This document shows positions 3,204 through 25,761 of a stretch of 64,000 bases of DNA, piece after piece. A program made the position numbers and the translations under genes. The notes beneath the pieces are model-generated. The model made no database searches. It was not told the origin of the DNA and saw only the letters and a list, made by a program, of their open reading frames with translations. Numbering within the stretch: position 1 is the stretch's first letter; every line of letters starts with the position of its first letter. Source of the stretch: Syntrophorhabdaceae bacterium (GTDB taxonomy: Bacteria; Desulfobacterota; Syntrophorhabdia; Syntrophorhabdales; Syntrophorhabdaceae); assembly GCA_963665295.1 (NCBI GenBank), contig OY762209.1:1152001-1216000 (forward strand). The letters run 5' to 3'.

Positions 3204-4488
3204 GCTAATGTCAACTGTTTTGTGTCAGTACAAAGACAGGGCACACTCCCTGGTTAATGTTCTCATACATAAATATCCCATAAAGGATTCTCTCGATGCT
3301 CGTTCTGTTACTGAATACTCCCATCGGTCTTGTCCTCCTGCGCACCTCCCGGAACCTCCTTTCAATGGCATTGGTCGTCCGTATTGCCTTTCTGAACTCG
3401 GGATCGGCAAACTGAAAACAGGTAAGCAGATCGTCAAGGTCATCCCTTAGACACTTTACTGCCTTGGGGTACTTATCGATCCAGGACTGGGTCCATCTCT
3501 TCGCGTAGGTCCTCGCCTCGGCATAGGTATTTGCGTTGTATATCCTCCCGAGCCCTTTCTTGACTGTTTTCTGTTTCTTCCTCGGCACCTTGTCCAGGAT
3601 GTTGCGTACCTTATGGGCAAAGCATCGCTGGAGGGGGATATCGGGGTAGACGGTGGGCAATATCGAAATCAGCCCCTGACCCCCGTCCGCACAGATGACC
3701 TCGATGCCGGAGAGTCCCCGCGTGATCAGGCTGGTGAGGAAGGTTTGCCATTCCGGGCCGCTCTCGGATCGGGCGAGGCGAAAATCTATGATCTCTTTTT
3801 TGCCGTCATGTCGAAGACCCAGGGCGACAAGCACGGGACGGGCAACCATTCCTGCCCCTGTCTTTCTCTTCATAACAATCCCGTCCAGGATAAGAGCCCG
3901 GAAGGAGCTGGTAATGCGCCTGCGATGGTAGGCATTTACTGCTTCGTCAAGGGTCCTGCCTACCCTGCTTACCGTCTGGGGGCTTATCTTCTCCCCCAGG
4001 AGCGCGAGGAGGGCAACTCCCACCTTTCGCGTGGAGAGGCCAAGAAGGAAACAGGTCAGGATGAGATGGTCGATCTCTTTGGTCCGCCGTGCATAGGCAG
4101 TGATAATACCCCTCGGGTTATACTGTCTGGTCCTCGGCACCGAAAGGGCAATGTCTCCAAGCTCGGTCAGGACATGGCGGACATAGCTCCCATTCCTCCT
4201 GTCCGGGATTCCTCTCTGATACGCCCATGAGAGATGACCTGCGACCTTTTCCTCCATCCTTTCCTTCAAGATCGTGGCGATGCTCATGCGAGCTGCATCA
4301 CGGTAATCGCCGCTCCACTCATCTTCTGAAGAAAGATTCATTTCCTTGACCATGTTAAACGCCTTTGATAAACTCTTTGTGATAATCTGTTGTTCCACGG
4401 GTACCTTCTCCTTATATAAGAATTTGGCGGTTCTTTTTAAGGAAGGTACCCTATCTTCTGCCTGTGACACAAGATATGATACATTAGC
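3204..4488 (-). mobile_element. IS256-family insertion sequence, 1285 bp
   Basis: Imperfect 24-bp terminal inverted repeats: GCTAATGTcaactgttTTGTGTCA at 3204-3227 and GCTAATGTatcatatcTTGTGTCA (reverse complement of 4465-4488). A 9-bp direct repeat GCCATATCC flanks both ends (3195-3203, 4489-4497). Confidence 0.93.
3211..4398 (-). CDS. IS256-family (Mutator-type) DDE transposase
   Basis: RNGSY, VPRTR, LSTRKV, LILDG, ADGGQG, QRCFAH and TTNAIERRFREVRRR motifs. Likely GTG start at 4398 after AAGGAG. The ORF-track start (4581) lies outside the element. Confidence 0.92.
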   Translation of the reverse strand: MEQQIITKSLSKAFNMVKEMNLSSEDEWSGDYRDAARMSIATILKERMEEKVAGHLSWAYQRGIPDRRNGSYVRHVLTELGDIALSVPRTRQYNPRGIITAYARRTKEIDHLILTCFLLGLSTRKVGVALLALLGEKISPQTVSRVGRTLDEAVNAYHRRRITSSFRALILDGIVMKRKTGAGMVARPVLVALGLRHDGKKEIIDFRLARSESGPEWQTFLTSLITRGLSGIEVICADGGQGLISILPTVYPDIPLQRCFAHKVRNILDKVPRKKQKTVKKGLGRIYNANTYAEARTYAKRWTQSWIDKYPKAVKCLRDDLDDLLTCFQFADPEFRKAIRTTNAIERRFREVRRRTRPMGVFSNRTSIERILYGIFMYENINQGVCPVFVLTQNS

Positions 4489-4579
4489 GCCATATCCCGG
4501 GGGCTGGTTATTGTGCCCCCATTTGTTGTATGATGAAATCGTGACAAAATAATGTGAAAAAGCACGGAGGTTCGGCAAC

Positions 4580-4855
4580 ATGGATCACAACATCTATTTT
4601 GAGGGAAAAGTTCAGAGTCTCACTTTGGTAACAGACCAGGGAAGGGCGACGGTCGGCGTCATCACCCCGGGCAAATTCACCTTCTCCACGTCCGCTCAGG
4701 AGAGGATGGTGATTACGTCAGGGACCCTGAACGTAAAGTTGCCGGACGGAACCCGGAAGACGGTGGGGCCGAACCAGGAATTCATGGTGGAGGCCAACGC
4801 CTCTTTCGATGTCGAAGCGGCGCACGACGTGTCTTACCTCTGCTACTACAAGTAG
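4580..4855 (+). CDS. ppnP: pyrimidine/purine nucleoside phosphorylase (YaiE/DUF1255)
   Basis: 91 aa; [18 protein letters not shown]...SG and terminal YLCYY match the PpnP pattern; GGAGG RBS. Confidence 0.85.
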
Positions 4856-4863
4856 ATAGCCAT

Positions 4864-6558
4864 ATGTGCCCATCAGGAAAGGAACTCCCGAAGACGGAGC
4901 CGACCCCGGCAGTGCCTGCGAAAGGCGACGCGAAGGCCCCTGCATTCAAGGGCGCGGACCCGTTCCCCCTGGGACCGGACAGGACAAAGTACCGCCTCCT
5001 CACCAGGGACTTCGTATCGGTCGTGGAGGTGAGCGGGAAGGAGATGCTCCAGGTTGACCCGAAAGGGCTTACGCTCCTCGCCAACGAGGCGATGAGGGAT
5101 GTGAACTTCCTTCTCAGGACGGAGCACCTCGAACAGGTTGCCGCCATCCTTGCGGACCCGGAAGCGAGCGACAACGACAAGTACGTGGCCGCGGCCATGC
5201 TCCGTAACGCCGAGGTTTCATCGAAGTTCGAGCTTCCCTTCTGCCAGGACACGGGCACGGCAACGGTCTTTGCGAAGAAGGGCCAACAGGTGTGGACCGG
5301 CGGGAACGACGAGGAATACCTTTCCGAGGGAATTTACAGGACCTATACCGAAGAAAGCCTGCGGTATTCACAGACGGTCCCCCTCACCATGTACGACGAG
5401 GCCAACTCCGGCTCCAACCTGCCCGCCCAGATCGACATCCTCGCCACGGGCGGGATGGAATACACATTTCTCTTTGTCGCCAAGGGCGGGGGCTCGGCAA
5501 ACAAAAGCACGCTCTACCAGGAGACGAAGGCCGTCCTTAACCCGGCGGGCCTTGAGAAGTTTCTCGTGGAAAAGATGAAGACCCTGGGCACTGCCGCGTG
5601 CCCTCCCTACCACCTTGCTTTCGTCATAGGAGGCACCTCCGCCGAGTCGTGCATGAAGACGGTGAAGCTGGCCACAACGAAATACCTCGACGGCCTTCCC
5701 ACGGAAGGAAACAGGCAGGGGCAGGCCTTCCGCGACACGGACCTTGAAAAGAAGCTCCTCGAAGCATCCCATAGGATGGGATACGGCGCCCAGTTCGGCG
5801 GAAAGTACTTCGTCCTCGACGTGCGCGTGATCAGGCTCCCCCGTCACGGCGCATCCTGCCCCATAGGCATGGGGGTCTCCTGCTCCGCGGACCGCAACGT
5901 AAAGGCGAAGATCAACAGGGACGGCATATGGCTCGAAGAACTCGAACGGAACCCCGGCCGCCTCATCCCGGCCGCCTACCGGGCGGACCATGACGCCGGT
6001 GCGGTCAGGATCGATCTCAACCGGCCCATGAAGGAGGTCCTTGCCGACCTGTCGAAATATCCCGTCTCCACGAGGCTGTCCCTCACGGGCACGATGATCG
6101 TTGCCCGGGATATAGCCCATGCGCGTTTCAAGGAGCGGATCGACGAGGGCAAGGGCGTCCCCGAATATCTCAAGAACCATCCCGTGTGCTACGCGGGCCC
6201 GGCGAAGACGCCTCCCGGCAAACACGCGGGTTCCTTCGGACCCACCACGGCAGGCCGCATGGACTCCTACGTCGATCTCCTCCAGTCGCGAGGCGCGGGT
6301 ATGATCATGATCGCGAAAGGCAACCGGAGCCGACAGGTAACGGATGCCTGCAAGAAGCACGGCGGCTTCTACCTGGGCTCCATGGGCGGCCCCGCCGCGC
6401 TCCTCGGTGAGGAGCATATCAGGAAGATAGAATGCATCGACTACCCCGAACTCGGAATGGAAGCAGTGTGGAAGATCGAAGTCGTAAATTTCCCCGCCTT
6501 CATCCTGGTGGACGACAAGGGAAACGACTTCTACAAGAACCTCGCGGGTGAACAATAA
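4864..6558 (+). CDS. fumA: class I (Fe-S) fumarate hydratase, FumA/FumB type
   Basis: [40 protein letters not shown] and DDKGNDF motifs. Confidence 0.93.
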
Positions 6559-9616: not shown

Positions 9617-12600
9617 ACGCCCCTGTGCGAGGGGCGATGCCATGGCGGAGAAATACGCGGATATGGACGAAGTTTCAATCCACACCCCCGTGCGAGGGGC
9701 GATTCTGGACCCTCACGGGTACGTTTCCTAACTGGACGTTTCAATCCACGCCCCCGTGCGAGGGGCGATGCTTACTGCGGGAATCATCCCCACAAGCTCT
9801 CTGGTTTCAATCCACACCCCCGTGCGAGGGGCGATACCGACACGACGCCGATACACCGAAGGATTTCATGTTTCAATCCACGCCCCTGTGCGAGGGGCGA
9901 TGCATGGGCCTGGATTTTCTGATCGTGCTCTGGGAGTTTCAATCCACGCCCCCGTGCGAGGGGCGATAAATAAGAATTGATTAGGAGGGCTACATCATAT
10001 GTTTCAATCCACGCCCCCGTGCGAGGGGCGATTTTGAGAGATGGTTTAGGAACCAGAGATAAGGAGGTTTCAATCCACGCCCCCGTGCGAGGGGCGATAC
10101 AGGTACAGGGTCAGGAGAAGATGGAGCGCTAAAGTTTCAATCCACGCCCCCGTGCGAGGGGCGATGCAGGATCAAGCGGGCATGACTCCCGGAGAATATG
10201 TTTCAATCCACGCCCCCGTGCGAGGGGCGATGGACCGCCGGAGCCGGGTTGAATCTTCTTTGAGAGTTTCAATCCACGCCCCCGTGCGAGGGGCGATAGA
10301 GCTTTTCGTACCCGCCGGCGTAGGTGGGAAGGTTTCAATCCACGCCCCCGTGCGAGGGGCGATAATCCGTGGATGCCGGGAAAAAGGGGAGGAAAAAGTT
10401 TCAATCCACGCCCCCGTGCGAGGGGCGATAGTAAACGGGCTACAAAGCCTACCAGCACTATAAGTTTCAATCCACGCCCCCGTGCGAGGGGCGATAACTC
10501 TCGCCCGAGAACTCGCGGCTGAAAAAGAAGTTTCAATCCACGCCCCCGTGCGAGGGGCGATGGCCTGCGGCCTCATGTCATATGCCAACGATATGTTTCA
10601 ATCCACGCCCCCGTGCGAGGGGCGATCACGGCCCGGCAGATTTATAACATCCTCAAGAAGGTTTCAATCCACGCCCCCGTGCGAGGGGCGATACTGAAGC
10701 CCTGCGGGCGCTCATTCAGGCTACGGCGTTTCAATCCACGCCCCCGTGCGAGGGGCGATGTCGGCATGCGGCAACAACTCTCACCCAGATTCGTTTCAAT
10801 CCACGCCCCCGTGCGAGGGGCGATAAGCGGTAGCACACATCATCAACAAGTCTTTTGAAGTTTCAATCCACGCCCCCGTGCGAGGGGCGATCTCGGGGTT
10901 ATCACTCCGTATCTTCCATTCTCCCGTTTCAATCCACGCCCCCGTGCGAGGGGCGATGAGGCGCAGAAAAAGGAAGAAAAAGCGGCAGAGGAGTTTCAAT
11001 CCACGCCCCCGTGCGAGGGGCGATGTTCATCGACGGAAGAGCACCCCGTATCATGGGAAGTTTCAATCCACGCCCCCGTGCGAGGGGCGATGGGATGCCT
11101 CACCCGTCCCCCCATGGTAGTGAAAGTTTCAATCCACGCCCCCGTGCGAGGGGCGATGCAGCCATGCGTACTCTGGCGCAGCTTACCAAAGTGTTTCAAT
11201 CCACGCCCCCGTGCGAGGGGCGATTCGCGGATCGCCAATACATTAGGGCCGGTCATGGGTTTCAATCCACGCCCCCGTGCGAGGGGCGATGGAGTGGTTT
11301 ACCCGGGCTACTCAATGGGCTCATGGTTTCAATCCACGCCCCCGTGCGAGGGGCGATCCAGGGCCGGAAAAGGGCCGCACCAGCACCGGTTGTTTCAATC
11401 CACGCCCCCGTGCGAGGGGCGATAGCGACGGAAACGACCAAGGCCACCGCAATAGCGGTTTCAATCCACGCCCCCGTGCGAGGGGCGATACCGTTCCCGT
11501 GCCGGAAAACTGTAGTGTTTCCGGTTTCAATCCACGCCCCCGTGCGAGGGGCGATACCGTCTCCGTCAACAGCACGTCCGGAGTGACCAGTTTCAATCCA
11601 CGCCCCCGTGCGAGGGGCGATCCCGACCTCGAACAACCCGTCCTCGTCCCCCGGGTGTTTCAATCCACGCCCCCGTGCGAGGGGCGATTGTGGCGAAGAC
11701 CTTTTTCGTCGGTGATCGCCCGTTTCAATCCACGCCCCCGTGCGAGGGGCGATGGGGTATCGCTGTAATGGCGTCGGACAGTGGTACGTTTCAATCCACG
11801 CCCCCGTGCGAGGGGCGATTATTCTCGGGAGCATGGGATTCCATGTACAGCAAGTTTCAATCCACGCCCCCGTGCGAGGGGCGATGGGCCGTCATACGGG
11901 CCTTTCACAATCTACGGATGTTTCAATCCACGCCCCCGTGCGAGGGGCGATGGGCCGTCATACGGGCCTTTCACAATCTACGGATGTTTCAATCCACGCC
12001 CCCGTGCGAGGGGCGATACTTGTCAAGGTTAAAGGATATTTGCGTCATGTGTTTCAATCCACGCCCCCGTGCGAGGGGCGATGTGTGCCCCGATAGGCAT
12101 ACAACACGGTCCCCATGTTTCAATCCACGCCCCCGTGCGAGGGGCGATGATGAGTACCTTGCACAGTGGATTGCCGAGCATGGTTTCAATCCACGCCCCC
12201 GTGCGAGGGGCGATCCGGATAGGGCCCCACGCGGTGAGGACATAATATGTTTCAATCCACGCCCCCGTGCGAGGGGCGATGGGGACGATGTAGGTCTCAG
12301 CAAGGCCATACCGGGTTTCAATCCACGCCCCCGTGCGAGGGGCGATTCCGGGTACGATGTTACGACCCTTTCCGCTCATGACGTTTCAATCCACGCCCCC
12401 GTGCGAGGGGCGATGATAATCAAGGACGCAATCAAGGAAAGGAGGAAAGAGTTTCAATCCACGCCCCCGTGCGAGGGGCGATGCCGGATCGTCGATACCT
12501 CCGTCCAGCGCACGAAGTTTCAATCCACGCCCCCGTGCGAGGGGCGATTTCGTCTCGCCTTTTATGCGGACCTGATCAAGCGGTTTCAATCCACGCCCCC

Positions 12601-15600
12601 GTGCGAGGGGCGATCGGGCTTATATTTCTTAACGTCGGGATCGGTCCAGTTTCAATCCACGCCCCCGTGCGAGGGGCGATGCCGGTATACTGCATGATAG
12701 TTACCCGACCATGGTTTCAATCCACGCCCCCGTGCGAGGGGCGATGCGCCGCATCGTAGACAAGGGCCTGAAATAACAGTTTCAATCCACGCCCCCGTGC
12801 GAGGGGCGATGCTCTGCGCGCGGAGATTCAACGTCTTGATGAAGTTTCAATCCACGCCCCCGTGCGAGGGGCGATTACCTGGAATGCAGGCACACGTGGA
12901 CCAAAAAGGGTTTCAATCCACGCCCCCGTGCGAGGGGCGATTCCGCCTCCTTCTTTCATTACCTCGCAGCAGTATCGTTTCAATCCACGCCCCCGTGCGA
13001 GGGGCGATTCTCCCGTGACTATCTCGGACCCGTCCACCCGGTGTTTCAATCCACGCCCCCGTGCGAGGGGCGATGATCCGCTGGTTGAGCATCGCGACCT
13101 TGCGCTTGGTGTTTCAATCCACGCCCCCGTGCGAGGGGCGATCGGACACCGGTCGGACAGGGGTGCGGCATCGAAGTTTCAATCCACGCCCCCGTGCGAG
13201 GGGCGATTGTCCGCGGTGAGTCTGGTCAAGCCGACTTCATAGGTTTCAATCCACGCCCCCGTGCGAGGGGCGATAGCACCAACCCGGTAGCAAAGCATAC
13301 GTCTGCTGTTTCAATCCACGCCCCCGTGCGAGGGGCGATATACGGATCTCGTCACTATTCTTTTCCGACAGATGTTTCAATCCACGCCCCCGTGCGAGGG
13401 GCGATTCGTAGCTGATATAGACGCTGTTCGTCCCCACGTGTTTCAATCCACGCCCCCGTGCGAGGGGCGATTCGGTTGAGGGCGGCGGTCTCCGTCCTAT
13501 CGCAATGTTTCAATCCACGCCCCCGTGCGAGGGGCGATTCGGTTGCCGCTTTCTTCCCACCTTATTCCGGTTAGTTTCAATCCACGCCCCCGTGCGAGGG
13601 GCGATCTCGATGATCAGGCCGGTTACATACTCGCAAAAGGTTTCAATCCACGCCCCCGTGCGAGGGGCGATGGCTTACCGGACACAACCGGCCTCAATCT
13701 GAAGGTTTCAATCCACGCCCCCGTGCGAGGGGCGATACATTCCTGTAAGCTGCTTTTCGCCTGACTTCACGTTTCAATCCACGCCCCCGTGCGAGGGGCG
13801 ATCTGACTTGTCATTTTTCTTCCCGATCATCAAGAAGTTTCAATCCACGCCCCCGTGCGAGGGGCGATCTCAAACTTGGAGACCATTTCCGGCCACCTTT
13901 TGGTTTCAATCCACGCCCCCGTGCGAGGGGCGATGCTCCCGATGCAATCGACCATAGCAGGGGTCAAGTTTCAATCCACGCCCCCGTGCGAGGGGCGATC
14001 CGGCGAAGGGGTCTAAGATGGTGTGGCCTGAATGTTTCAATCCACGCCCCCGTGCGAGGGGCGATAATACTGTTCTCTCCGTCAAAACGGGGTGAATGTG
14101 TTTCAATCCACGCCCCCGTGCGAGGGGCGATCCGATGCCAGTCCAGTAGCCAAAGGAGCCATTATGTTTCAATCCACGCCCCCGTGCGAGGGGCGATCCG
14201 CTGCTTCTATTTTTGCGTTCCATTCTTTTTTGTTTCAATCCACGCCCCCGTGCGAGGGGCGATCGTCGCAGTAATCAAAAATGTCGTTGTCGAAAAAGTT
14301 TCAATCCACGCCCCCGTGCGAGGGGCGATTTGCCTCCTTTGCTGCCTATTTTTATTGCCTGTTGTTTCAATCCACGCCCCCGTGCGAGGGGCGATGCTGC
14401 ACCCATGGCTGCCGTAGCTGCCGCATAGGTTTCAATCCACGCCCCCGTGCGAGGGGCGATATTTCCCGCAGCACTGGTCTACAACGCGCAGGCCGTTTCA
14501 ATCCACGCCCCCGTGCGAGGGGCGATTACATCCTGTACTTCCCCTAACCATTCCCCATCAGTTTCAATCCACGCCCCCGTGCGAGGGGCGATCCTGTGCT
14601 CGCGACATAATAAGCGGCATAGAGACGTTTCAATCCACGCCCCCGTGCGAGGGGCGATCCCGTGGTGGTTATGACTGCGCCCATGATCGACGGTTTCAAT
14701 CCACGCCCCCGTGCGAGGGGCGATCTCTTCCGTGCTCACGTCCCCCACCACGTCCATAAGTTTCAATCCACGCCCCCGTGCGAGGGGCGATCATCACCAC
14801 GGCTATCCAAATGATTCAGGCCATGGTTTCAATCCACGCCCCCGTGCGAGGGGCGATCAGCCTCAAATGTTCATGACCGGCCGGACAGAGGTTTCAATCC
14901 ACGCCCCCGTGCGAGGGGCGATGCAGAGCCATCCATAATAGTTGCTAAGGTTATACCGTTTCAATCCACGCCCCCGTGCGAGGGGCGATGGCGCTATTGG
15001 CTGGCGAGATGGCTACTCAAGGGTTTCAATCCACGCCCCCGTGCGAGGGGCGATCGGGCACGATGTTACGACCCTTTCCCCTCATGACGTTTCAATCCAC
15101 GCCCCCGTGCGAGGGGCGATAAGACTCAAGACTCCTTCCGTTCGGGGCAAAAGGTTTCAATCCACGCCCCCGTGCGAGGGGCGATAATTGCTGGCCTGAG
15201 TTTCGCCCACATCACCAATGTTTCAATCCACGCCCCCGTGCGAGGGGCGATTTAAAGGATTGTCGATGACTGGTTCAAGAGATAGTTTCAATCCACGCCC
15301 CCGTGCGAGGGGCGATGTGACCAACCCGGTAGCAAAGCATACATCCGCTGTTTCAATCCACGCCCCCGTGCGAGGGGCGATCCGAATGAAGTGATACCGT
15401 TTTCCCTCCTCCTATTGTTTCAATCCACGCCCCCGTGCGAGGGGCGATTGCGATATCCGCCGCAATAAGGTCAATCCCCGGGGGTTTCAATCCACGCCCC
15501 CGTGCGAGGGGCGATTGACCGTTACCTTCTGCGACACACCATCGTCGTTGTTTCAATCCACGCCCCCGTGCGAGGGGCGATGCAGATAAACCCTTTTGCC

Positions 15601-15845
15601 TTCCTCTTCTTCAGGTCGTTTCAATCCACGCCCCCGTGCGAGGGGCGATGTGTGCCTTTCATTATTCCTCCTTCTCTTTGTTGTTTCAATCCACGCCCCC
15701 GTGCGAGGGGCGATGAGAGGAGGTAAGCCATGAACGAGCGAGAGAAGGTTTCAATCCACGCCCCCGTGCGAGGGGCGATGTAAGGAGGGGCGTAGTACAT
15801 TCATGCCCATCAAGTTTCAATCCACGCCCCCGTGCGAGGGGCGAT
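9617..15845 (-). CRISPR. type I-C CRISPR array: 94 full 32-bp repeats plus one degenerate terminal repeat, about 94 spacers of 33-36 bp
   Basis: Repeat GTTTCAATCCACGCCCCCGTGCGAGGGGCGAT on +, i.e. ATCGCCCCTCGCACGGGGGCGTGGATTGAAAC on -. First full copy at 9672, last at 15814-15845. Variant and degenerate repeats cluster at the low-coordinate end, so that end is the trailer. Counts are manual. Confidence 0.98.
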
Positions 15846-16028
15846 AGCTACATGTCTAACTTGTCAAAATAAAACCTAAAATACCGTCAATTTCGCGAAC
15901 CTGTCCAATTCGGTTCATCTCCACATATTCAATTGTCAAAGAGCGACAGAAAAACACATGTAATAGTAAACGCTTGACTCATCCGTGAGCCTCCCGGGAT
16001 TTGTGGGAGCTTCGGGTTCGCGGATGCC
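15846..16028 (-). promoter_or_regulatory. CRISPR leader
   Basis: AT-richer non-coding stretch between the cas2 stop and the first repeat. Confidence 0.8.
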
Positions 16029-16319
16029 TCATATGATCAGGGGTCCTTCCTGATCGATCCCTTCTTTTGCCCCGATATGCTCAACCCGCCGCTTCCAGTT
16101 CGATCCCAGGTAATAGAGGCGGAGACTGTCCTTCTCCAGGTCGATCTCGTCTATCAGGCGTTGCTTCAAAGCGGCCCACTGCGCTGGATCGATAATGCAC
16201 TCAAAGACGGAGTACTGCACTCTTTGGCCGTAGTCCTGACACGCCTTCGCCACACGATGCAAGCGCCGCTGCCCGCCTGTATTCGATGTAGCAACGTCAT
16301 AGCATACCAGCACCATCAT
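16029..16319 (-). CDS. cas2: CRISPR-associated endonuclease Cas2
   Basis: VLVCYDV, GQRVQYSVFEC and DSLRLY motifs; 96 aa from the ATG at 16319. Confidence 0.96.
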   Translation of the reverse strand: MMVLVCYDVATSNTGGQRRLHRVAKACQDYGQRVQYSVFECIIDPAQWAALKQRLIDEIDLEKDSLRLYYLGSNWKRRVEHIGAKEGIDQEGPLII

Positions 16320-16329
16320 GCCTTTTCTC

Positions 16330-17361
16330 CTATTTCCATATGAAGGGCGGGTACCCATCGAGGTCTCGCCGAAGATACCGGGCCATGAGGAGGGCCTGTA
16401 CGTGAAACAAAAGTCCGATCATGACTTTTTCACCAAGAAAAGGGTGCGTGATCTCTTCCTGCTTGCGCTCCTGATAGGCCACAAGAACGGTCTTACGTGC
16501 GTCGTCAGTCATCATAACCGCGCCCGATTCCATTTTCTTGAATCCCTTGCCCTGCACCTGTTGGAGATTGATAAGCGACACCACAAGGCGGTCGGCGATA
16601 AACGGCCTGAATTCCTCCATAAGATCAAGGGCGAGCCCCGGTCGCCCCGGTCTGTCCCGGTGCAGGAAGCCGACGGCAGGGTCAAGGCCGACGGTTTCCA
16701 GCGCTGACCGCACATCGTGCATCACAAGCGTGTAGACAAAAGAAAGAAGGCAGTTGACATTATCGAGGGGTGGCCTTCTGTTGCGTTCATCGAACTGAAA
16801 AATCTCTTTTTGCGCAATAATAAGATGATCAAAGACATTGAAATAGATGTGCGCCGAATCTCCTTCAACCCCTCGAAGCCCGTCGAGAGGATAATCCCGG
16901 TCCACAAGTTCGATCTGATGGGTCAATCGCAGGACCGCACGACGCATGGCCTGTTCGTCTATCTTCTCCCCGTGGTCCCGGATGGCCCTTTGCAGTACGG
17001 CCCGGGAGTTGGCGATCTTTCCCATAAGGATGCACTTGGCAATCCGGGCTGAGGCATCGAGGTCGTCGGCCAGACGGTACTGCTCCCTCCGCAACAACAC
17101 ATTTCCCGATACCGGACCCTGCACTCTTGCCAGAAACCGTCCATGCTCGGTCAAGAAACTTATTCCCACCTGATTTTCCGCACAGAACCCCATGAGATAG
17201 GGGCTGCACCCGACATTGCCGAAACAGACAACGCCGCCGATGGTATGAACAGGGACACGAAGGCGCACCGCGCCGTCGATCTTGACGACGATCGTCTCAC
17301 CCTCCTTCGAAAGATACGCCCCTTGCGTCGTTACATAGAGGGTATTGAGATGTTTCTTCAT
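16330..17361 (-). CDS. cas1: type I-C CRISPR-associated endonuclease Cas1
   Basis: MKKHLNTLYVT, SGNVLLRREQY, LRGVEG, RRPPLD, GLDPAVGFLH, LALDLMEEFR and YPPFIWK; 343 aa. Confidence 0.97.
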   Translation of the reverse strand: MKKHLNTLYVTTQGAYLSKEGETIVVKIDGAVRLRVPVHTIGGVVCFGNVGCSPYLMGFCAENQVGISFLTEHGRFLARVQGPVSGNVLLRREQYRLADDLDASARIAKCILMGKIANSRAVLQRAIRDHGEKIDEQAMRRAVLRLTHQIELVDRDYPLDGLRGVEGDSAHIYFNVFDHLIIAQKEIFQFDERNRRPPLDNVNCLLSFVYTLVMHDVRSALETVGLDPAVGFLHRDRPGRPGLALDLMEEFRPFIADRLVVSLINLQQVQGKGFKKMESGAVMMTDDARKTVLVAYQERKQEEITHPFLGEKVMIGLLFHVQALLMARYLRRDLDGYPPFIWK

Positions 17362-17999
17362 TGCTTGCCCGCCTCGATCATTCTTTTGAGATAACGTTCT
17401 ACCGACAATTTCTTCTCCATCTTCCTCGGCAAGCACGCCCCAATGAGGGAACAGCTTTCACATCGCTTCGCGTAGACCGGCGGCGGCGTCACGCCTCCAG
17501 AGATCAGTTTCCGGGCCTTTTCCGCAGTCTCTTCCGTCTCCCGCCGCAATGTATTGTCAAACGCTATATCCTGCCGACGCCTGGTTTTTCCGTAAAAAAG
17601 GGCTCCTTCGGGCACGGCGACGGAGAGCATCTCTTCGAGGCACAACCCTTGGGCACACAATTGGACCGCGTCGCAATGATCGGGCTTCGGTTTGCCTCGC
17701 TTGTACTCCACGGGAAAAGGCTTCCAAGAGCCTTTCTTTTCATGAAGAAACTCCACCACATCGGCCACGCCTACAAGGCCAAGCCTCAAGGACCGCAGGG
17801 GCAGGCCGCGGGCGATGCGGACCTTTCCCCGTGACTCATCCCCGGTCTCGTGTACCTTCTCGTGCATGATGCGGCCCTCTGCGGTAAGACCGCTCTCTGC
17901 CCAGATCTGCTCAATATGGATCAGAGCACACTGGCGTGGGCAGAACGCATAGTGCTGCAAAGCCGAGATCATGATGAGATCATCTTCGGAATAGGTCAT
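17358..17999 (-). CDS. cas4: CRISPR-associated exonuclease Cas4
   Basis: ISALQHYAFCPRQ, ADVVEF, PVEYKRG, QLCAQ and C-terminal CxxC...C cluster ligands; ATGA overlaps with both neighbours. Confidence 0.95.
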   Translation of the reverse strand: MTYSEDDLIMISALQHYAFCPRQCALIHIEQIWAESGLTAEGRIMHEKVHETGDESRGKVRIARGLPLRSLRLGLVGVADVVEFLHEKKGSWKPFPVEYKRGKPKPDHCDAVQLCAQGLCLEEMLSVAVPEGALFYGKTRRRQDIAFDNTLRRETEETAEKARKLISGGVTPPPVYAKRCESCSLIGACLPRKMEKKLSVERYLKRMIEAGKQ

Positions 18000-18574
18000 G
18001 TCTTCTTCCACTGCCTCCGGGCTCTTGAGCGCACGCGATAGAGCCGCTCAGTAAAACCGCCTTCCTCGATAAACCCTCTTTCCAGGGCACGCAGTTGGTG
18101 GTCAAGAAGGTAGTTGGCCTGATGGATCAGGCAGATTGCCGCATTGGCCGCGACAACGGCCGAATCTTCAAAATATGTCTTATAGGTCGAATAGGCCTTA
18201 TCGGACTTATACGCCAAAGCCCTAACCTCTTTAGCTTTGGTATGATCTCTGCCCCAAAGGGGCAAGTGTTTTTGCCGCAAGAAGTCTTGAAAATCGAGCA
18301 AAAGCTCCTCCAAGCTCGCCCGCGCCACACCCACGAGCTTCAGTTCAGTCTTTTTCGAAGTGCCCGACGCCATGCTGCCTTCGGCAATGTTCTGTTTACC
18401 GCTTCTCGCCGCCTGCACCATTTGGTCGAAGGTACGGGAGCGGCGGTCGATAAACCGTTCGCAAAAGACTACCGTGGCGTCGTAGACAATCTCTGTCATC
18501 CGGTAGGACATAAGATTACGGTAACCACCGTGGGGCGGGATGAGGGTGGGGTCGTCGTCCATATAGTGAGACAT
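17996..18574 (-). CDS. four helix bundle protein with suffix domain (23S rRNA IVS/Avd-like superfamily)
   Basis: GGYRNL, DQMVQAARSGKQNIAEG, ARASLEELLLD and EGGFTERLY match my recollection of this family. Confidence 0.85.
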   Translation of the reverse strand: MSHYMDDDPTLIPPHGGYRNLMSYRMTEIVYDATVVFCERFIDRRSRTFDQMVQAARSGKQNIAEGSMASGTSKKTELKLVGVARASLEELLLDFQDFLRQKHLPLWGRDHTKAKEVRALAYKSDKAYSTYKTYFEDSAVVAANAAICLIHQANYLLDHQLRALERGFIEEGGFTERLYRVRSRARRQWKKT

Positions 18575-18588
18575 AGCTGTTGTCTAGT

Positions 18589-19494
18589 CTACTTGTTATT
18601 AAGAGTTCGATTCCATACCAGTTTTTCCGTATTGACCCCATCTTCATCGAGTGTGACGCTATAGTGTTCCATTGATGTGGGAGAAGTTATTCCTTCCTTA
18701 ACGGCAACCTTTAGTCTCTCAAAGGTCCGGTATGCAGGTTCACAAATCTCATTCTGTTTGGGAGAGATGAAGACTAGGTTTTCCAGTATGATCGAACCCA
18801 GTGGTCGTGCGGAGGATTCATCGTTTTCAAACAGAGTTGTCATGGCTTCCTTCAAGACCTCAAGATCTGTGTCTGTAAAACCCGTGCCCCTTGGCGGTTC
18901 TTTTGCGAGAAAGGGGTTTACAGAGCCGACCACCTTATATACGGCATGCTCGACATAATTCTTGGTCCCCATGGTCGATACCTTACCCTTCTTCTTTTCT
19001 TCCTCGTTAGCGACACAGCACCGGGTTATTTGACTAACTGTTGGATCGATCTGTGCAATGCTTCTAGCCCATTGTATGGTAACAGGTCCACGTATTCCTT
19101 GATTGCCATCCCCGGCATCCTCGGTCTCGGTGTCATTTTGCCCCCTCTTACTCTTGCCTCGGTCCTTCCTCCTCGTCAAGACAGCCCCAAAGGCTCTTAT
19201 GTCCCAATATGCCTCGCACATGTGTTTTCTGTCATACTTGTGCGCCTCTGCTTTGGTCGCAAGGGGACGATCATCTTCTTCTGTGGGTCGGATAAAGATA
19301 TCAAATCCCTCCTCCCCATCTTTGAGTTGTGCCACCCTGTTTCTGATCTTGCGCTTGATACAAACGTCCGAGATAAGGCCGTACCCTTCCAAGTCTTGGC
19401 GAGGACTGTTGGCCACAAGCGGGTCCCCGTTCGGATTGGCCTTGGTTGCCGAAATAACAGCGATGAAATCAGTACGATTCTTGATGGTATCCAT
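18589..19494 (-). CDS. cas7: type I-C Cas7 (Csd2)
   Basis: ANPNGDP, SDVCIKRKIRN, DIRAFG, IRGPV, TMGTK, TGFT and SSARP. Confidence 0.92.
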   Translation of the reverse strand: MDTIKNRTDFIAVISATKANPNGDPLVANSPRQDLEGYGLISDVCIKRKIRNRVAQLKDGEEGFDIFIRPTEEDDRPLATKAEAHKYDRKHMCEAYWDIRAFGAVLTRRKDRGKSKRGQNDTETEDAGDGNQGIRGPVTIQWARSIAQIDPTVSQITRCCVANEEEKKKGKVSTMGTKNYVEHAVYKVVGSVNPFLAKEPPRGTGFTDTDLEVLKEAMTTLFENDESSARPLGSIILENLVFISPKQNEICEPAYRTFERLKVAVKEGITSPTSMEHYSVTLDEDGVNTEKLVWNRTLNNK

Positions 19495-19519
19495 ATTATG
19501 TCCTCCTCTTGAGTTTTAT

Positions 19520-19942
19520 CTATTCTTTGTTATCTGCTTGTCCGGCTGTTGCTTCTGTTATTATTTCATTTTGCGGATTGGCTCCGGCTACACTTTTGAT
19601 GCCTTTTGTCTTGAGAATTGTCAATTGATGGTGATAGCCGACTATGACCCTTCCCGGTTCGAAGGCTAGGGTTCCTAGGCCCTCAGAAGTGAAAGGATCA
19701 TATATCTCTCCGAGCAAATTGTCGAAGTACTTCTTTTCCCCAGCGGTCATGCGTTTCAGGTATGGCATCGAAGCTAGTTCGATCCGTCCTATGAGTTGGG
19801 GTCTGTTCATTACACTTTGCATTAGAGAACTCGCCTTGTTATTGGGGTTCCCTCTTCCCCGATCAGTTTGGATCCAGTAGTGGACGGCAATTATTCTACC
19901 TGCCCGGTACGAACGGTCAGTACAGTCTTTATCCAGTGACAT
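19520..19942 (-). CDS. cas11: Cas11c small subunit, translated in-frame from inside cas8c
   Basis: AAGGAGG Shine-Dalgarno (19951-19957) 8 nt upstream of an in-frame ATG starting MSLDKD; 140 aa; matches the known I-C arrangement. Confidence 0.8.
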   Translation of the reverse strand: MSLDKDCTDRSYRAGRIIAVHYWIQTDRGRGNPNNKASSLMQSVMNRPQLIGRIELASMPYLKRMTAGEKKYFDNLLGEIYDPFTSEGLGTLAFEPGRVIVGYHHQLTILKTKGIKSVAGANPQNEIITEATAGQADNKE

Positions 19943-21823
19943 TTTGAGGTCCTCCTTCTTAGTACGTAATAAGTAATTTCTGTAGGCTGCAGCCGCAAGC
20001 CACACCGTATTGTCGTTCTGTTCCGTCAACGCCTTGAAAAGTATCACGTTAACAAGGCTAAGCGGTAATGGCCTCCCGAAGAGGGTAACTCCGGGCATTG
20101 CGTCCCACCAGACGGGAATCTTATTCTTCTTATCCGCTCCGGACTTCGGATTTGCGGCCTTGACAATTGCATGAATTGTGGGTGCCCTGTTAACAGCCAA
20201 ATTCAATCCTGGTTTCTTGTCGCGAAAGGCTACGCCCATTGCCGTATCGTTGATGAATGAGGCGTTGGCCGCTGCAAATTCCTCCAAGGTGAACCGATGA
20301 AACGCGATGAGCGATAAGCGTCCCTTTGCAAGCCTCATTCCCATCAGATGTACATTGTGCAAATCCTCAAAGTTTGCGTACATGCCAAGTTTTGCCCGGA
20401 CGAGACGCGTGCATTCGCCGGCCGTGACCACTTCGTCCCCATAGCCGCAGTCGTATGGCTGGTCCCCTCCCAGTTGTTCTTTAAAGAGGCTCCATGGTTT
20501 GGTATCAGTGTCCTCACGCCAAATGATGTAGAGAATGTCCCCTACTCTTACTTGGCAGTTAGCGGCCAGCCACCGCATTGCTTGACCGTATTTTTGTGAC
20601 TCATCTACTCCGGTAATATAGATTTCATGGTCGGCAAATCCGGTTGAAGAATAGGTATTGTACTCAGAGCTTTCATTGAATGATACTAACTTGCCTCCTT
20701 TTCGCGGCACGGTCAGGTGATCAATGGTCTTGGCAGGGAGTACATACTCGCCACTTAAGGTGCTGATTCGCTTTGTGGACTTGAATTCTTCCCTGACTTT
20801 AACCTCGGATTTGCTCCTCTGCATGGTTATCCAAGATGTCTGTACTTGCGGCATCTGATTGATATAGGCCACATTGCCGACAAGTCGCCACCGAACATAG
20901 AGTCTTCCGGCTTTGTCTCGGTATTTGTTGTCAGAATCACATGCGCTGAGATGCTCCCAATTCCTTGCGTAAGTCTCCTTTCCAATCCTAATCTTTTGGG
21001 CTGCCGCATTTACAATTAGTGCATGCGGACTATCCTCATCCATCTGACTGCCTTCGCTCAACAGGTTCAAAGTCCTATTTAGAATCTTAAGGTCTTCACA
21101 ATCTGAGTTTGTCAAGAAATCGCTGAACTGTCGTTTGTATGAGTTCCTGGCCTGTTTGTAAAGACCCTGCATTATTTCGACGGGGTACGCATCCTCGAGA
21201 ATCTGTCGATTGAGGCGGACGAGGTTTTCCTCATTCAAAGGCATTCTGGAATGCAAGCAGATTAGTGCGCGTGACTCCTGAGACAATGACAACTCCATAA
21301 AACACGGCACGTCATGGAGGGACGGCCCTCGAATAATCCTATTGAACTCGTCAATCAAGGTAGAAGATTGCAGTTTTGCGGATTTTGAGCCACCGATTAT
21401 TTCCTTTGCTTCGCGAGAGAATCGCATTTTCCATAAGTATTGAGAGACTTTGTCGTCTTCTTGATGCTGAGGGAGCCGTTGGAGAAGGTTTGATAATCCC
21501 TTCTCAACAAAATCTGTATTACGGAAGGACTTTGGTCCGCTAACCACATCAGGGTTGATGAAGAATCGTAATTGCTCAACGATTCCGTGAGGATGATTAT
21601 ACCAGTCATTTCGGCGATCATCGGACTTGGCGGTAACTTGACAATTAACATCCTGCGGGTCGGCTCCGCTCATGGTCTTGGCGGTTGAAATTGCCGAGAT
21701 AATTTCTCCTTTTTGGCTAATGACTACATCCACTCCAATTGGTAAAGCTGAGTGGAACAGCTTTGGCACCTGCTCAGACACCTTGAGCCTGTCGTAGAGC
21801 TTTATCAACTCTTGCAGCACCAT
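19520..21823 (-). CDS. cas8c: type I-C large subunit Cas8c (Csd1), divergent and enlarged (767 aa)
   Basis: Located between cas5 and cas7; LQELIKLYDRL N-terminus, KLVSFN, KGRLS, SY.AGR..A and GYHHQ; AAGGGAGG RBS before the ATG at 21823. Confidence 0.85.
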   Translation of the reverse strand: MVLQELIKLYDRLKVSEQVPKLFHSALPIGVDVVISQKGEIISAISTAKTMSGADPQDVNCQVTAKSDDRRNDWYNHPHGIVEQLRFFINPDVVSGPKSFRNTDFVEKGLSNLLQRLPQHQEDDKVSQYLWKMRFSREAKEIIGGSKSAKLQSSTLIDEFNRIIRGPSLHDVPCFMELSLSQESRALICLHSRMPLNEENLVRLNRQILEDAYPVEIMQGLYKQARNSYKRQFSDFLTNSDCEDLKILNRTLNLLSEGSQMDEDSPHALIVNAAAQKIRIGKETYARNWEHLSACDSDNKYRDKAGRLYVRWRLVGNVAYINQMPQVQTSWITMQRSKSEVKVREEFKSTKRISTLSGEYVLPAKTIDHLTVPRKGGKLVSFNESSEYNTYSSTGFADHEIYITGVDESQKYGQAMRWLAANCQVRVGDILYIIWREDTDTKPWSLFKEQLGGDQPYDCGYGDEVVTAGECTRLVRAKLGMYANFEDLHNVHLMGMRLAKGRLSLIAFHRFTLEEFAAANASFINDTAMGVAFRDKKPGLNLAVNRAPTIHAIVKAANPKSGADKKNKIPVWWDAMPGVTLFGRPLPLSLVNVILFKALTEQNDNTVWLAAAAYRNYLLRTKKEDLKMSLDKDCTDRSYRAGRIIAVHYWIQTDRGRGNPNNKASSLMQSVMNRPQLIGRIELASMPYLKRMTAGEKKYFDNLLGEIYDPFTSEGLGTLAFEPGRVIVGYHHQLTILKTKGIKSVAGANPQNEIITEATAGQADNKE

Positions 21824-21824
21824 A

Positions 21825-22475
21825 CTAATGCCTCCCTTCAAGTTCGTCGCGTACTAGCCGGTCCTCTTTCACATCATAGGGGTCGGGAAAATTGACTACT
21901 CCGCTGGTCATCAAAGCGTTCTTCCAGAGTCTTCTTACGCATTTTCCGTCGCCGTCCATAGGGTAGTCGATGCCATGCAACATTGTGCCGAAATATAAGG
22001 TTCCGCTATCATCATAATCGCCCTCTCCATCCATAAAACCGGAGAGCGGGCTAACAACGCATTGACATTCCCTGGCACCCAGAAAGGTATCAAGTCTACC
22101 ACCTTTTTCGATTGAACGTCGTGCGATGTCGAGATGTTTTCCTGGTTTCCGATCTGCGGAACACCTGGGGTCCCGGTTCCATTCCATCCGCGCCTGGATG
22201 TTGTAGCAGACATCATGCAGATAGGTTTGGATTACTTGCTTGCGTTTTCGGTTTTCATCGATCGCATTTGTCATAATTGATTGGGTGCGGACCACTTTCA
22301 TTACCCTCAAGCGCTCCGGTATCCACATGATTGTCGGCTTCCAGTAGATTGATTCAAAAAGTCCCTTGATCGCATCGTACGTCGGTATTTGATACGTACA
22401 CTTCTCTTGTCGAAACTCCGGGACAGTAAACAGCGCGAGCGGTCCGGTTGCTCTTATGCAGAACCTTCCAACCAT
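21825..22475 (-). CDS. cas5: type I-C Cas5 (Cas5d)
   Basis: ALFTVPE, TYQIPT, IYWKP, LHDVCY, FLGAREC and FGTMLHG. Confidence 0.92.
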   Translation of the reverse strand: MVGRFCIRATGPLALFTVPEFRQEKCTYQIPTYDAIKGLFESIYWKPTIMWIPERLRVMKVVRTQSIMTNAIDENRKRKQVIQTYLHDVCYNIQARMEWNRDPRCSADRKPGKHLDIARRSIEKGGRLDTFLGARECQCVVSPLSGFMDGEGDYDDSGTLYFGTMLHGIDYPMDGDGKCVRRLWKNALMTSGVVNFPDPYDVKEDRLVRDELEGRH

Positions 22476-22486
22476 AATTTGTCCTC

Positions 22487-24922
22487 CTATACATACAATG
22501 AATCGACAATGCCGGGTGTTCTTGTAACACCCATATCGTTGTCATAGAAACCCGGTTTCAGGCACAGAATGCCCGTGTCTTCCTGTGCTTCATAGATGGC
22601 GTCAGCTTCTCTTAGCGCAATGTCCAACGCACTGCCCTGATATAGTTGCACGGAGTAGGACTGCGCCTGTCGAAGAAGGTTGTAATACTCACGATCGACG
22701 GCCTGGCTACAAAGATCAGCGATAATTCCGCTACCTTTCTTTGTCCAGGGAACTACCACGGTGTAGGAAAGGTCACGAATTACATAGAATTCTTCTGCGA
22801 CGGCCTTGAAAGGAGTGGAAAAGGCAAAGGAGCCCACGGGCTCAGTAAATAGAAGGCCGCACGCTGTATTGGCCCGATAGTGTCCTGGAAGCCCTGCGTT
22901 GACGGGATTGATGGGAATATCTACCATCTTTCTATTCTGAAGTTCTTTATAGTACGCTCCAAAGTAATATTGAATTGAGCTTCGTCCTAAACTGTGCCGG
23001 CCCATTTCCTTTGATGTCACCAGCGCGTCCCACCCGAGGCGTTTGCCTAGCTCCAGGGCCGTTAATGACTCGGTATTCTCTTCAGATGGATCGAGGTTTA
23101 CGATATAGACTCCCCCAAGTTCTTCCATCAGACCGTTCCGGTTGCATCGCCCGGCGGCTTGGGCAATCGAATCAAGTCCGGCGATAGACCTCCAGACGCA
23201 ACAAAAATCAATGTCAACCCCCGCCTCGATCAATTGGGTGCTGACTACGATCATACGGTCTTTCGTCAGTCTATTACGGATATGCCTAATCCTTTCCAGC
23301 CGATGGGCGGGGCACATATTTGTCGACAGATGAAATACATGGCCGGGAAAGGAGCCCTTCACCTTGGCAAAGATTGATGCAGCGGCGCGCTTAGTGTTAA
23401 CGATGCACAGGGCGTTGCCGTGGAGTTTCCCCGATTCAGTTAAAGCATCACCGAGTTCGGTTGTGGTCCAGAAGCTTGTCTGCCTGCACCTATTGATGAT
23501 TTCTGTCCGCTCAAGGTCTCTAAATAATTCATCTGGGGAAAAACATATTTCGGCGTTCTTTGGCATTCGCAGTCCCCGCTTTAGTCCTAGATTATCGTCC
23601 GAATCAATATATAGACGTGGCTGGGTTGCTGAACAGAGAACAACTGAGCACCCTTCCGATTCTACTAGATAATTCAATGCTTGGCAAGCTAGAGTCAAGG
23701 TATGAGGCGGGAGGGCTTGCACTTCATCGAGAATGATTATTGATTTGGATAGACGGTGCGTTCTGCGGTAGTTGCATGTACCCGCACTGAAAAGAGATTC
23801 AAGAAAGGAAACCGACGTGGTGAATACCACTGGCGCATCCCAGTTTTCGGCGAATAGCTTGCGGTGGGAATTCTCTTTCCCATTGCTGAGGTTAGAATGT
23901 TGTTCCAATACGTTTTGAGTTGTGTACCTGCCCTCTTGGTCCTGTTCGTCTAATGCATCCCTTGCCACGTCGGCATTTTGATCAATAATTGAAGTGAACG
24001 GAATAATATAGAATACGCGTTCGAGCCCATGCTGTGCGGCATGATTAAGAGCAAATCGAAGGGAAGCTAATGTCTTCCCACCACCAGTCGGCACCGTCAG
24101 TGTAAAAAAACCCAGAGGTCTCTTGGCTGCATCCAGACATTCCCTGCTGATCCTAGCTCGGACCTCGTCAACTCTATTCTTCGGTTCACCAAATTTGCCG
24201 AGATAAATCTCCAGTTTTCCAACGAGATCTTCAAATGACGAGCGGCTGGCATTAGAACGCGTTGCTTTCCGCGACGGATCCTCTGTATCGGCGGCATCGT
24301 TACGGTCTGCATCAACAAGGGTACTGTACACCATACGCAGAAGCATTTGGGCTTTGAATGGATCATACTTTCCGACTGTACACATTTTCTGGTTAAAGAC
24401 CATGGCGATTTCCTTTATAGCTTTAGGAATCAGATCTTCCACCTCCGCCTTTAGGGTCCCTGGGACGTTTCCTGTGTAATCAGGGATTGCTTTGGTGATG
24501 CGGGACGCATAGTTGCCGGGTCCCTCGCAGATATTCAGTAACCCGGAATGATGCGATGCGACACAGATAGCCACAATATCGCGGGCCATGAGCTCCATTG
24601 CTGATGCGTTCCGACTAAACGTTGAATGGACGTATTGGGCGCCCGCGGTGGAATGATCAATTTTACCCTTTAATGCACCGACATCGTCCTTGTCGCAATC
24701 GATAAGACCTGTGGCGGACTTTATGTAATGTTGAAATTCCTGAGAGTATTTTCCGAAGTCGTGTAGAGTCCCAGTCAATCGACACAGCTCTGGGAGGCAA
24801 AGAGTGTGGCCGACTTGACCGGCATACTCGGCGGTACCATTCAGGTGTTTGTCCACTGTTTGCTTGCGCCGACCATCTTTGCTGACGTGTGCTATGTAAT
24901 TGCCGGTATCATGTTTCGGCAT
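22487..24922 (-). CDS. cas3: CRISPR-associated helicase/nuclease Cas3 (HD + SF2)
   Basis: LHDFGK, SHHSGL, LVDAD, PTGGGKT, LDEVQ, SAT, STQLIEAGVD and QAAGRCNR. Confidence 0.96.
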   Translation of the reverse strand: MPKHDTGNYIAHVSKDGRRKQTVDKHLNGTAEYAGQVGHTLCLPELCRLTGTLHDFGKYSQEFQHYIKSATGLIDCDKDDVGALKGKIDHSTAGAQYVHSTFSRNASAMELMARDIVAICVASHHSGLLNICEGPGNYASRITKAIPDYTGNVPGTLKAEVEDLIPKAIKEIAMVFNQKMCTVGKYDPFKAQMLLRMVYSTLVDADRNDAADTEDPSRKATRSNASRSSFEDLVGKLEIYLGKFGEPKNRVDEVRARISRECLDAAKRPLGFFTLTVPTGGGKTLASLRFALNHAAQHGLERVFYIIPFTSIIDQNADVARDALDEQDQEGRYTTQNVLEQHSNLSNGKENSHRKLFAENWDAPVVFTTSVSFLESLFSAGTCNYRRTHRLSKSIIILDEVQALPPHTLTLACQALNYLVESEGCSVVLCSATQPRLYIDSDDNLGLKRGLRMPKNAEICFSPDELFRDLERTEIINRCRQTSFWTTTELGDALTESGKLHGNALCIVNTKRAAASIFAKVKGSFPGHVFHLSTNMCPAHRLERIRHIRNRLTKDRMIVVSTQLIEAGVDIDFCCVWRSIAGLDSIAQAAGRCNRNGLMEELGGVYIVNLDPSEENTESLTALELGKRLGWDALVTSKEMGRHSLGRSSIQYYFGAYYKELQNRKMVDIPINPVNAGLPGHYRANTACGLLFTEPVGSFAFSTPFKAVAEEFYVIRDLSYTVVVPWTKKGSGIIADLCSQAVDREYYNLLRQAQSYSVQLYQGSALDIALREADAIYEAQEDTGILCLKPGFYDNDMGVTRTPGIVDSLYV

Positions 24923-25568
24923 GGTTCCCTCCCAAATACCTTCTCAGGGAATAACGGACGCCTGTCGCTACCCGAGCTGCGCATCATCAATCTCGCGAAA
25001 TTTCCGGGACTATCCCTACATGGTCCACCAAGCACTCCCCAGTCCCTTTTGGGTTGGTATGGTATGAGTCGCCTTCTCGGCGAAAGGAGGCGTGACATGC
25101 CTGCGCGTTCTTATAGGTACTTCTATCGCTTGTCGTTTGAAGTCATCGCTGAAAGGGGAACTGGTAATCGGCTTCTTGCCGATAACTTGCGTCACATAAA
25201 CCCCCACCGAATTTATGGGAACGAAACGAAGAAAGTCTAGAGCCATAGACGTTGTACAACCAAGGGAGGGCGAAGTCAAGAAGATTCTCGGGAGGAGCGA
25301 ATCTCGGAAGATGGGGATCGTGCTCGATGAATGGTGGTGGCGCATGAAGCACGCTGTAAGCCGTTCACGCTCGGTCTCCCGTTACCGTTGATTGGACTAT
25401 CCTCCATCTTATCAGGAATAGCCCGTTACGTTCAATCCTTTGTTTCAAGCAAAACCCATTTTGCCCCTTCAACCGTTCTGCCCGCTATCTCGTGCGCCGG
25501 ACCTTTCCGCCCCCTTTTCTAATTGTCTTATGCCCCTTTCGTACGATGCAACTTTCGAAAACCATCAT

Positions 25569-25761
25569 GAGGGAGAGCCCCTCTTTCACTCCTGTGTGCA
25601 TTGCGGAGGGCAGTTAAGAAAACTCAGCGAAAATCATCGGCGAGGTAGAGAGCCCCCTTGCTCTGTAGGGGGATGGGGGGTGGCATTCGCCGGGGATTTT
25701 CGCGCCAAGTTTTCTCTGCCTGGAGCGTCGGCACGCGGGGGTGAAAGAGGGGCTCTCCCTC
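25569..25761 (+). repeat. 193-nt long imperfect inverted repeat (candidate ncRNA or MITE-like element)
   Basis: 31-bp outer arms (25569-25599, 25731-25761) with three mismatches, all U-G on the + strand. Nested stems GGCAG/CTGCC, AGAAAACT/AGTTTTCT, GCGAAAATC/GATTTTCGC and CGGCGA/TCGCCG. Confidence 0.8.

Follow-up and report, generated by a model that had tools for sequence, protein, structure and literature searches.

A divergent type I-C Cas8c carries an undescribed promiscuous helical domain with a probably incidental role in Cascade

The Cas8c protein encoded in the DNA stretch analysed here (64,000 nucleotides from a Syntrophorhabdaceae bacterium, hereafter the window) is 767 aa long, and a first-pass annotation of the sequence had described it as longer than usual, with an extra block near its PAM-sensing part. 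This raises the question of whether the block is genuine, where it comes from and whether it acts as an anti-CRISPR shield, a sensor or an interaction module, the possibilities that the annotation had raised. The gene belongs to a complete type I-C CRISPR system lying on the minus strand of the window in the order cas3-cas5c-cas8c-cas7c-four-helix-bundle gene-cas4-cas1c-cas2-array. The system comprises cas3 (22487..24922, HD nuclease and helicase), found by a profile match that is the sole strong cas3 match genome-wide, cas5c (21825..22475; TIGR01876, above cut-off), the divergent cas8c (Csd1) that hosts the insert (19520..21823; PF09709, above cut-off), cas7c (18589..19494; TIGR02589, above cut-off), a four-helix-bundle-suffix gene between the effector and adaptation genes (17996..18574; TIGR04258), cas4 (17358..18011; TIGR00372), cas1c (16330..17361; TIGR03640), cas2 (16029..16358; TIGR01573), and an array (9672..15845) in which 94 repeats, each 32 nt long, alternate with 93 spacers of 33-36 nt. 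Probable transcription of the array from the minus strand is deduced from its leader side and the PAMs. One spacer is tandemly duplicated (11854-11985), and a degenerate partial repeat lies at the leader-distal end, before 9672. Upstream of cas3, a short repeated element (25554-25760) at which several contigs break with variant letters is possibly a dispersed repeat at the edge of an acquired module. Elsewhere in the window, an ORF at 3211-4581, upstream of a fumarate hydratase-like gene, presumably resembles IS256-family transposases.

The assignment of Cas8c to type I-C draws on the Cas_Csd1 profile, the full operon and a Cas8c fold with a Cas11c bundle and an internal start. The protein matches PF09709 at 178.7 bits (cut-off 27, E 2.6e-52), the best stretch beginning at residue 287 against profile position 120, and TIGR01863 at 134 bits, under the cut-off of 218.65. 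Its full-length AlphaFold2 model (mean pLDDT 67.5) aligns to 8dex_I at Z 20.3, and the C-terminal bundle of the model (residues 629-738) aligns to the Cas11c chain 9jhc_A at Z 14.5. An AAGGAGG ribosome-binding site precedes M628, from which an internal cas11c reading frame (19520..19942, minus strand) is probably translated; a precedent for such a start within cas8c is described in the accessible text of PMC7684278. Gene order, fold, the internal Cas11c start and the TTC PAM at matched protospacers are all shared with characterized type I-C Cas8c/Csd1 (PF09709, TIGR01863; D. vulgaris 8dex/8dej, N. lactamica 8g9t). The differences from ordinary type I-C are the low identity (about 20%), the score under the TIGR01863 cut-off, a 121-aa domain in the loop equivalent to that of D. 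vulgaris K92, the four-helix-bundle gene between cas7 and cas4, and a wedge position at which no glutamine is visible, as is likewise the case in one subgroup of our comparison set.

That comparison set consists of 20 Cas8c proteins of 567-674 aa from 25 loci, one locus having been left out for a mis-called start (L135) and four for the lack of a complete ORF (L143, L146, L148 and L150). In their alignment (A5), all 20 show a gap at residues 99-219 of the present protein, with 0-6 residues of their own in these columns, which confirms the extra block. All of the motifs quoted in the first-pass annotation occur in the protein; the block it delimited and the end at 21529 stand, while the start moves from 21170 to 21167, so that the insert (21167..21529, minus strand) is three bases longer and encodes 121 aa. 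Without it, Cas8c would measure 646 aa, inside the ordinary length range. A domain HMM matches the insert at 82 bits over HMM positions 2-115 of 116. Contigs from two of four sequencing runs, one of them possibly from the source sample, cover 15816-25644 with 0 differences, and no contig joint skipping the insert was found among the 15 of 27 joints listed. The insert is neither a frameshift nor an obvious assembly error. A second Cas8c, protein P0002, is 67% identical and carries an insert at the identical place. When residues 225-745 were used as query, P0002 alone came above threshold; other searches for closer relatives found nothing, and the domain HMM gave no match in four further Cas8c proteins from related genomes. 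With only two Cas8c carriers and no close insert-free relative found, the insert junction is not readable at base level.

The position of the insert within the effector complex can be approached by alignment. In the accessible part of a type I-C structural account (10.1101/2022.06.15.496202), the N-terminus of Cas8c clamps the duplex, the four PAM loops being those of N72, Q212, the residue-92 lysine and R363, and K92 of D. vulgaris touches the backbone of the PAM duplex. The insert maps to a short loop after a conserved YxLG-like motif, which corresponds to the K92 loop (L128 against 8dej_I, together with A5), so that the suggestion of a graft near the PAM-sensing part agrees with the alignment. 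This placement rests on alignment because the full-length model resolves the insert poorly (pLDDT below 50 over residues 133-179), and the three-dimensional position in Cascade is accordingly a predicted one.

The domain is far from confined to CRISPR proteins. Used alone as query, the insert matched two non-Cas proteins with repeated copies; a four-row profile recovered 97 proteins among 7,999 candidates, and a 38-row profile matched 5,177 protein clusters at E<=1e-3 (3,263 at 1e-10). The statement, in the first-pass annotation, that the same motif occurs in unrelated bacterial proteins was therefore correct, and the host range, the lack of a curated family and the structural model uphold its description of an accessory, mobile and unnamed helical domain. 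The unit spans about 115 aa with sharp bounds and closes on the conserved motif R-L-N-R-x-L-L-E-D-A-Y-P. Two of the 97 proteins are Cas8c and one is an RT-Cas1, the others being unrelated cytoplasmic, membrane and periplasmic proteins. Hosts across the family include MFS and other transporters, redoxins, an S41 protease, LptE, MurJ, cytochromes c, kinases, a NACHT protein, DNA ligase (within the OB fold), sigma-54 (within the core-binding domain), and MgtA and YidC, whose genes are neighbours in locus L043. RpoB is a host in one family of the same phylum (loci L120, L122, L123 and L125 of genomes G255, G027, G314 and G166), and the insertion site holds about one codon in the RpoB of the present genome versus the whole domain in G255. 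In this family (f29), five of six genomes have a domain match. The RT-Cas1 fusion, a verrucomicrobial protein (P0095, residues 215-329) with the domain upstream of its RT domain, is a second CRISPR host. Since the host sites are both cytoplasmic and extracytoplasmic, the domain has no common compartment-specific job.

A pattern scan of GTDB genomes gave 306 matches, 221 of them confirmed, and Verrucomicrobiota account for about 58 of the 80 loci kept, as counted from their titles. Five verrucomicrobial genomes, selected because they had domain matches, contain 7-14 each; none of 52 copies holds a stop, a lack of broken copies that is partly inherent in a protein-based search. The domain is rare in the organism's own phylum (14 of 401 genomes, and 0 of 11 from the same family), and the Cas8c insert is the single copy in this genome. 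It was absent from the phage and plasmid record collections searched, with three viral contigs as the only viral occurrences. The 38-row alignment gave only scattered weak matches in Pfam (14 weak families), NCBIfam and PADLOC; a Csm2 match in PADLOC (E 0.0044), given by one of the 38 members, was not adopted as an identity. No sequence relative was found in the PDB. In the ESM Atlas, sub-0.9 leads went to Cas_Csd1 clusters only, and a canonical domain copy had no usable match. Among abstracts and passages of the openly accessible literature, no published account was found that describes this domain or a Cas8c with a domain insertion. The domain family is undescribed, and Pfam, NCBIfam, PADLOC and the PDB do not account for it.

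Modelled in isolation with AlphaFold2, the domain folds into seven helices at a pLDDT of 95.1, and strand or bridge marks at residues 7 and 120 of the model are consistent with adjacent termini. Fold searches with this model gave no clear match in the Foldseek PDB, VIA-align wide (best Z 4.2) or BFVD collections. The fold is possibly new, an absent match being no proof of novelty. The pattern of hosts has a parallel in the BEAN/HABAS insertional domains of RNA polymerase, for which the accessible text of PMC11515920 describes homologous domains at several positions and in non-homologous hosts, including RpoB. Those domains are beta-rich and belong to known CATH families, whereas the family of the Cas8c insert is all-helical, has no fold match and covers a far wider range of hosts; the main text of PMC11515920 contains 0 occurrences of 'Geobacter', 'Desulf' and 'helical'.

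We lean towards a reading in which the insert stems from a promiscuous domain cassette that enters genes in frame, and is now a tolerated and partly domesticated passenger on the PAM clamp of Cas8c. The coding sequence of a self-contained helical domain of about 115 aa would have entered unrelated genes again and again, each time in frame and at a permissive loop of the encoded protein, and because its two ends appear in the model to meet, the host fold would survive. The copy seen here would have entered the N-terminal PAM clamp of Cas8c, in the loop equivalent to that of K92, when the gene belonged to the ancestor of a cas3-cas5-cas8-cas7 module that is rare and divergent and that this genome apparently acquired horizontally. 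Its retention would have lasted long enough for its codon composition to match that of the host gene and for its sequence to drift from the consensus with the core retained. It would now ride the clamp as an appendage with, at most, a steric effect on the approach of DNA or inhibitors to the PAM pocket, and not as a dedicated CRISPR sensor. Passenger status is suggested by the occurrence of the domain in periplasmic loops as well as RNA polymerase, which rules out an origin as a CRISPR component, by the near-zero net charge of the insert and by the lack of a partner copy in the genome.

The features of the Cas8c copy fit an old, folded and tolerated appendage that has drifted from its family. 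GC3 is 0.521 in the insert versus 0.525 in the remainder of cas8c. Between the two Cas8c proteins, the insert is 59.5% identical versus 67-74% for other segments, and the two copies agree at 23 of 28 family-core positions versus 19 of 42 variable ones; such conservation of the core between proteins that are 67% identical could reflect function and not only the need to fold. Thirteen residues common to both copies, R75C among them, are rare (<=5%) in the family; they could mark an interface specific to Cas8c, and shared ancestry explains them too. In a quick tree the two copies form a clade (support 96) to which no donor lineage is assigned. As for the module, GC3 is 0.50-0.54 in the effector genes versus 0.64-0.67 in cas4 and cas1, and in 60 relatives the best match of Cas7 does not exceed 43% identity across the greater part of its length. 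Because of this gap in GC3 and the lack of a closer Cas7 relative, the effector genes look foreign, and composition suggests that the cas3-cas5-cas8-cas7 module reached this genome horizontally. The four-helix-bundle-suffix gene (17996-18574) lies where the low-GC3 effector genes give way to the host-like adaptation genes.

The spacers give some indication of how the system performs. Four of the 93 match elsewhere in the genome. Those at window positions 10232 and 10298 perfectly match a resident prophage (G000:C1:2513777 and 2514159), each with a 5'-TTC PAM; the target of spacer 3 lies in another prophage and has a TGC PAM and a seed mismatch; the remaining match is partial. TTC thus flanks two of the four matches, a flank that reflects acquisition. 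Because two perfect TTC-flanked prophage targets are tolerated, interference on TTC targets in this strain appears blocked or weak, which suggests an anti-CRISPR or inactive interference. The target with the TGC PAM and seed mismatch is as expected, in a single case, after escape from TTC-dependent interference. In the prophage matched by spacer 3, an intergenic solitary I-C-like repeat (G000:C1:3741772) is a candidate RNA anti-CRISPR, a class described in the accessible text of PMC10651486. Given this repeat, and since protein anti-CRISPRs could also act, weak interference on TTC targets does not implicate the insert.

The genome also holds a second cas5c-cas8c-cas7c module of the ordinary type (L001 7658-10903; G000:C1:2957.7-2960.9 kb), with a Cas8c of 585 aa that lacks the insert. 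It has no adjoining cas3 or adaptation genes and is followed by a mini-array of two repeats (G000:C1:2957490-2957582). Over 21 nt, the mini-array spacer is identical to a site that has a TTC PAM and lies close to the 5' end of a chromosomal gene (C1:~5394330; L165, ORF 4544-6505), which we take to resemble an aldehyde:ferredoxin oxidoreductase gene. The mini-array is a candidate for Cascade-mediated repression of a metabolic gene.

Among the alternatives to the passenger reading, the first is that the domain has been domesticated at the PAM entry, where it would act sterically as a shield or modulator and either hinder anti-CRISPRs that block the PAM or change how the PAM is read. The site itself speaks for it, as the loop to which the insert maps belongs to the N-terminal clamp and contacts the PAM, and the accessible part of 10.1101/2022.06.15.496202 describes AcrIF2 and AcrIC4 as blocking the PAM site by binding at or beside it; so does the retention of the insert, with its 13 rare residues in common, in an orthologue of 67% identity. 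Against this, the same domain occurs in thousands of proteins unrelated to CRISPR, it is less conserved than the remaining Cas8c, and its net charge (-1 and +1 in the two Cas8c copies) is near neutral. The persistence of the two perfect TTC-flanked protospacers in the resident prophage weakens the idea of an effective shield further, since it points to weak interference. We consider this explanation unlikely; with two Cas8c and one RT-Cas1 among 97 otherwise unrelated proteins, no strong charge in the domain and two tolerated self-targets, the CRISPR-specific shield or sensor of the first-pass annotation finds no support.

A rather improbable alternative turns the same self-targets into a consequence of the insert, which by disrupting the K92-equivalent loop would impair the PAM clamp, so that Cascade would bind TTC targets weakly or not at all and the spacers at 10232 and 10298, perfectly matched and TTC-flanked, would be tolerated. 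Such impairment sits poorly with the state of the locus, in which cas3, cas5 and cas7 are intact, the Cas11 start is preserved and the other segments of Cas8c share 67-74% identity with P0002, a picture unlike decay. Other causes of tolerance exist in the candidate RNA anti-CRISPR of the other prophage and in possible protein anti-CRISPRs, and the third target, though one case, fits escape from an interference that depends on TTC.

Seen from the family instead of the locus, the domain might be a homotypic adaptor that couples its host proteins to each other, in the manner of EAD or death-like domains. The accessible text of PMC7159879 describes EAD1-11 and bacterial death-like domains as small, often helical, mobile and non-enzymatic, in many architectures, and the present domain is likewise all-helical and often multi-copy, with at least two matches in 13 of the 97 proteins; adjacent genes both carry it in loci L030, L041, L043 and L051. 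Several CARD chains are among the weak fold matches (Z 2.4-3.3, rmsd 2.8-3.6 over about 70 residues), at scores below the level that the tool regards as meaningful. However, EADs form terminal pairs in linked conflict-system genes (PMC7159879), whereas this domain is internal, inserted inside host domains and not appended to them, often in housekeeping or membrane proteins on both sides of the membrane; none of 38 members matches an EAD or death-like Pfam family. A domain with a single copy in the genome has no partner in another protein and none in a linked gene, and a homodimer prediction (score 0.25, mark 0.42) speaks neither way. We consider an adaptor role very unlikely.

How the domain moves was addressed at the DNA level. 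Across 91 copies, junction inverted repeats average 5.33 nt against 5.20 nt in controls and direct repeats 5.26 against 5.09 nt, in the setting of no close empty allele and of old duplications that erode; neither palindromic or inverted-repeat ends nor a target duplication was detected at the domain junctions. Synonymous codons vary freely across the same number of copies, and identity at four-fold sites is 0.403 within genomes (79 pairs) versus 0.397 between genomes (356 pairs). Against synonymous shuffles, the present copy has a folding z-score of 0.15, and a set of 25 copies has a mean of -0.99, with three of them below -2. The closest pairs of copies sit in orthologous hosts, so the insertions are judged to be old and vertically inherited; a nine-row clade (support 99, quick tree) mixes different host genes and therefore points to a past burst. 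The least probable explanation, a translated palindromic MITE-like element of the Rickettsia palindromic element (RPE) type, reproduces the in-frame insertion into many unrelated genes and the several copies per genome described in the accessible text of PMC10969869, but is judged weak on the junctions, from which old insertions could have lost their marks, on the folding scores, on the free synonymous variation with same-genome copies no closer at four-fold sites, on length (about 350 bp versus about 150 bp for RPEs, PMC10969869) and on conservation of the domain as a folded protein across many phyla, with no detected palindrome, terminal repeat or target duplication.

Inteins, too, are in-frame insertions in essential proteins and have adjacent termini, and the present domain resembles them in these respects. 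It differs from them in being helical, in showing no sign of self-excision and in its ends, which over 91 copies have neither an invariant N-terminal Cys/Ser nor an invariant C-terminal His-Asn followed by Cys/Ser/Thr, both termini and flanks being variable. A bolder interpretation, tentative and on balance doubtful, would combine an undescribed class of mobile element, a coding cassette of about 350 bp that enters essential genes (RpoB, ligase, YidC, Cas8c) in frame without DNA hallmarks and persists thanks to its closed, possibly new fold, with its recruitment in Cas8c as a natural addition to the PAM clamp, where it would tune the entry of DNA or the access of anti-CRISPRs.

The Cas8c variant described here is real and new in carrying an undescribed promiscuous domain, whose role in Cascade is probably incidental. 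It indicates that the PAM-clamp loop of Cas8c can carry a folded domain of 121 residues. In a compact Cascade that serves in genome editing, the loop is thus a naturally occurring point for fusions, and the variant is a direct test case for whether add-ons alter PAM or anti-CRISPR sensitivity. With it, a large and unannotated domain family of more than 5,000 clusters and no fold match gains a CRISPR host, and the behaviour of this family bears on how whole domains enter bacterial proteins.
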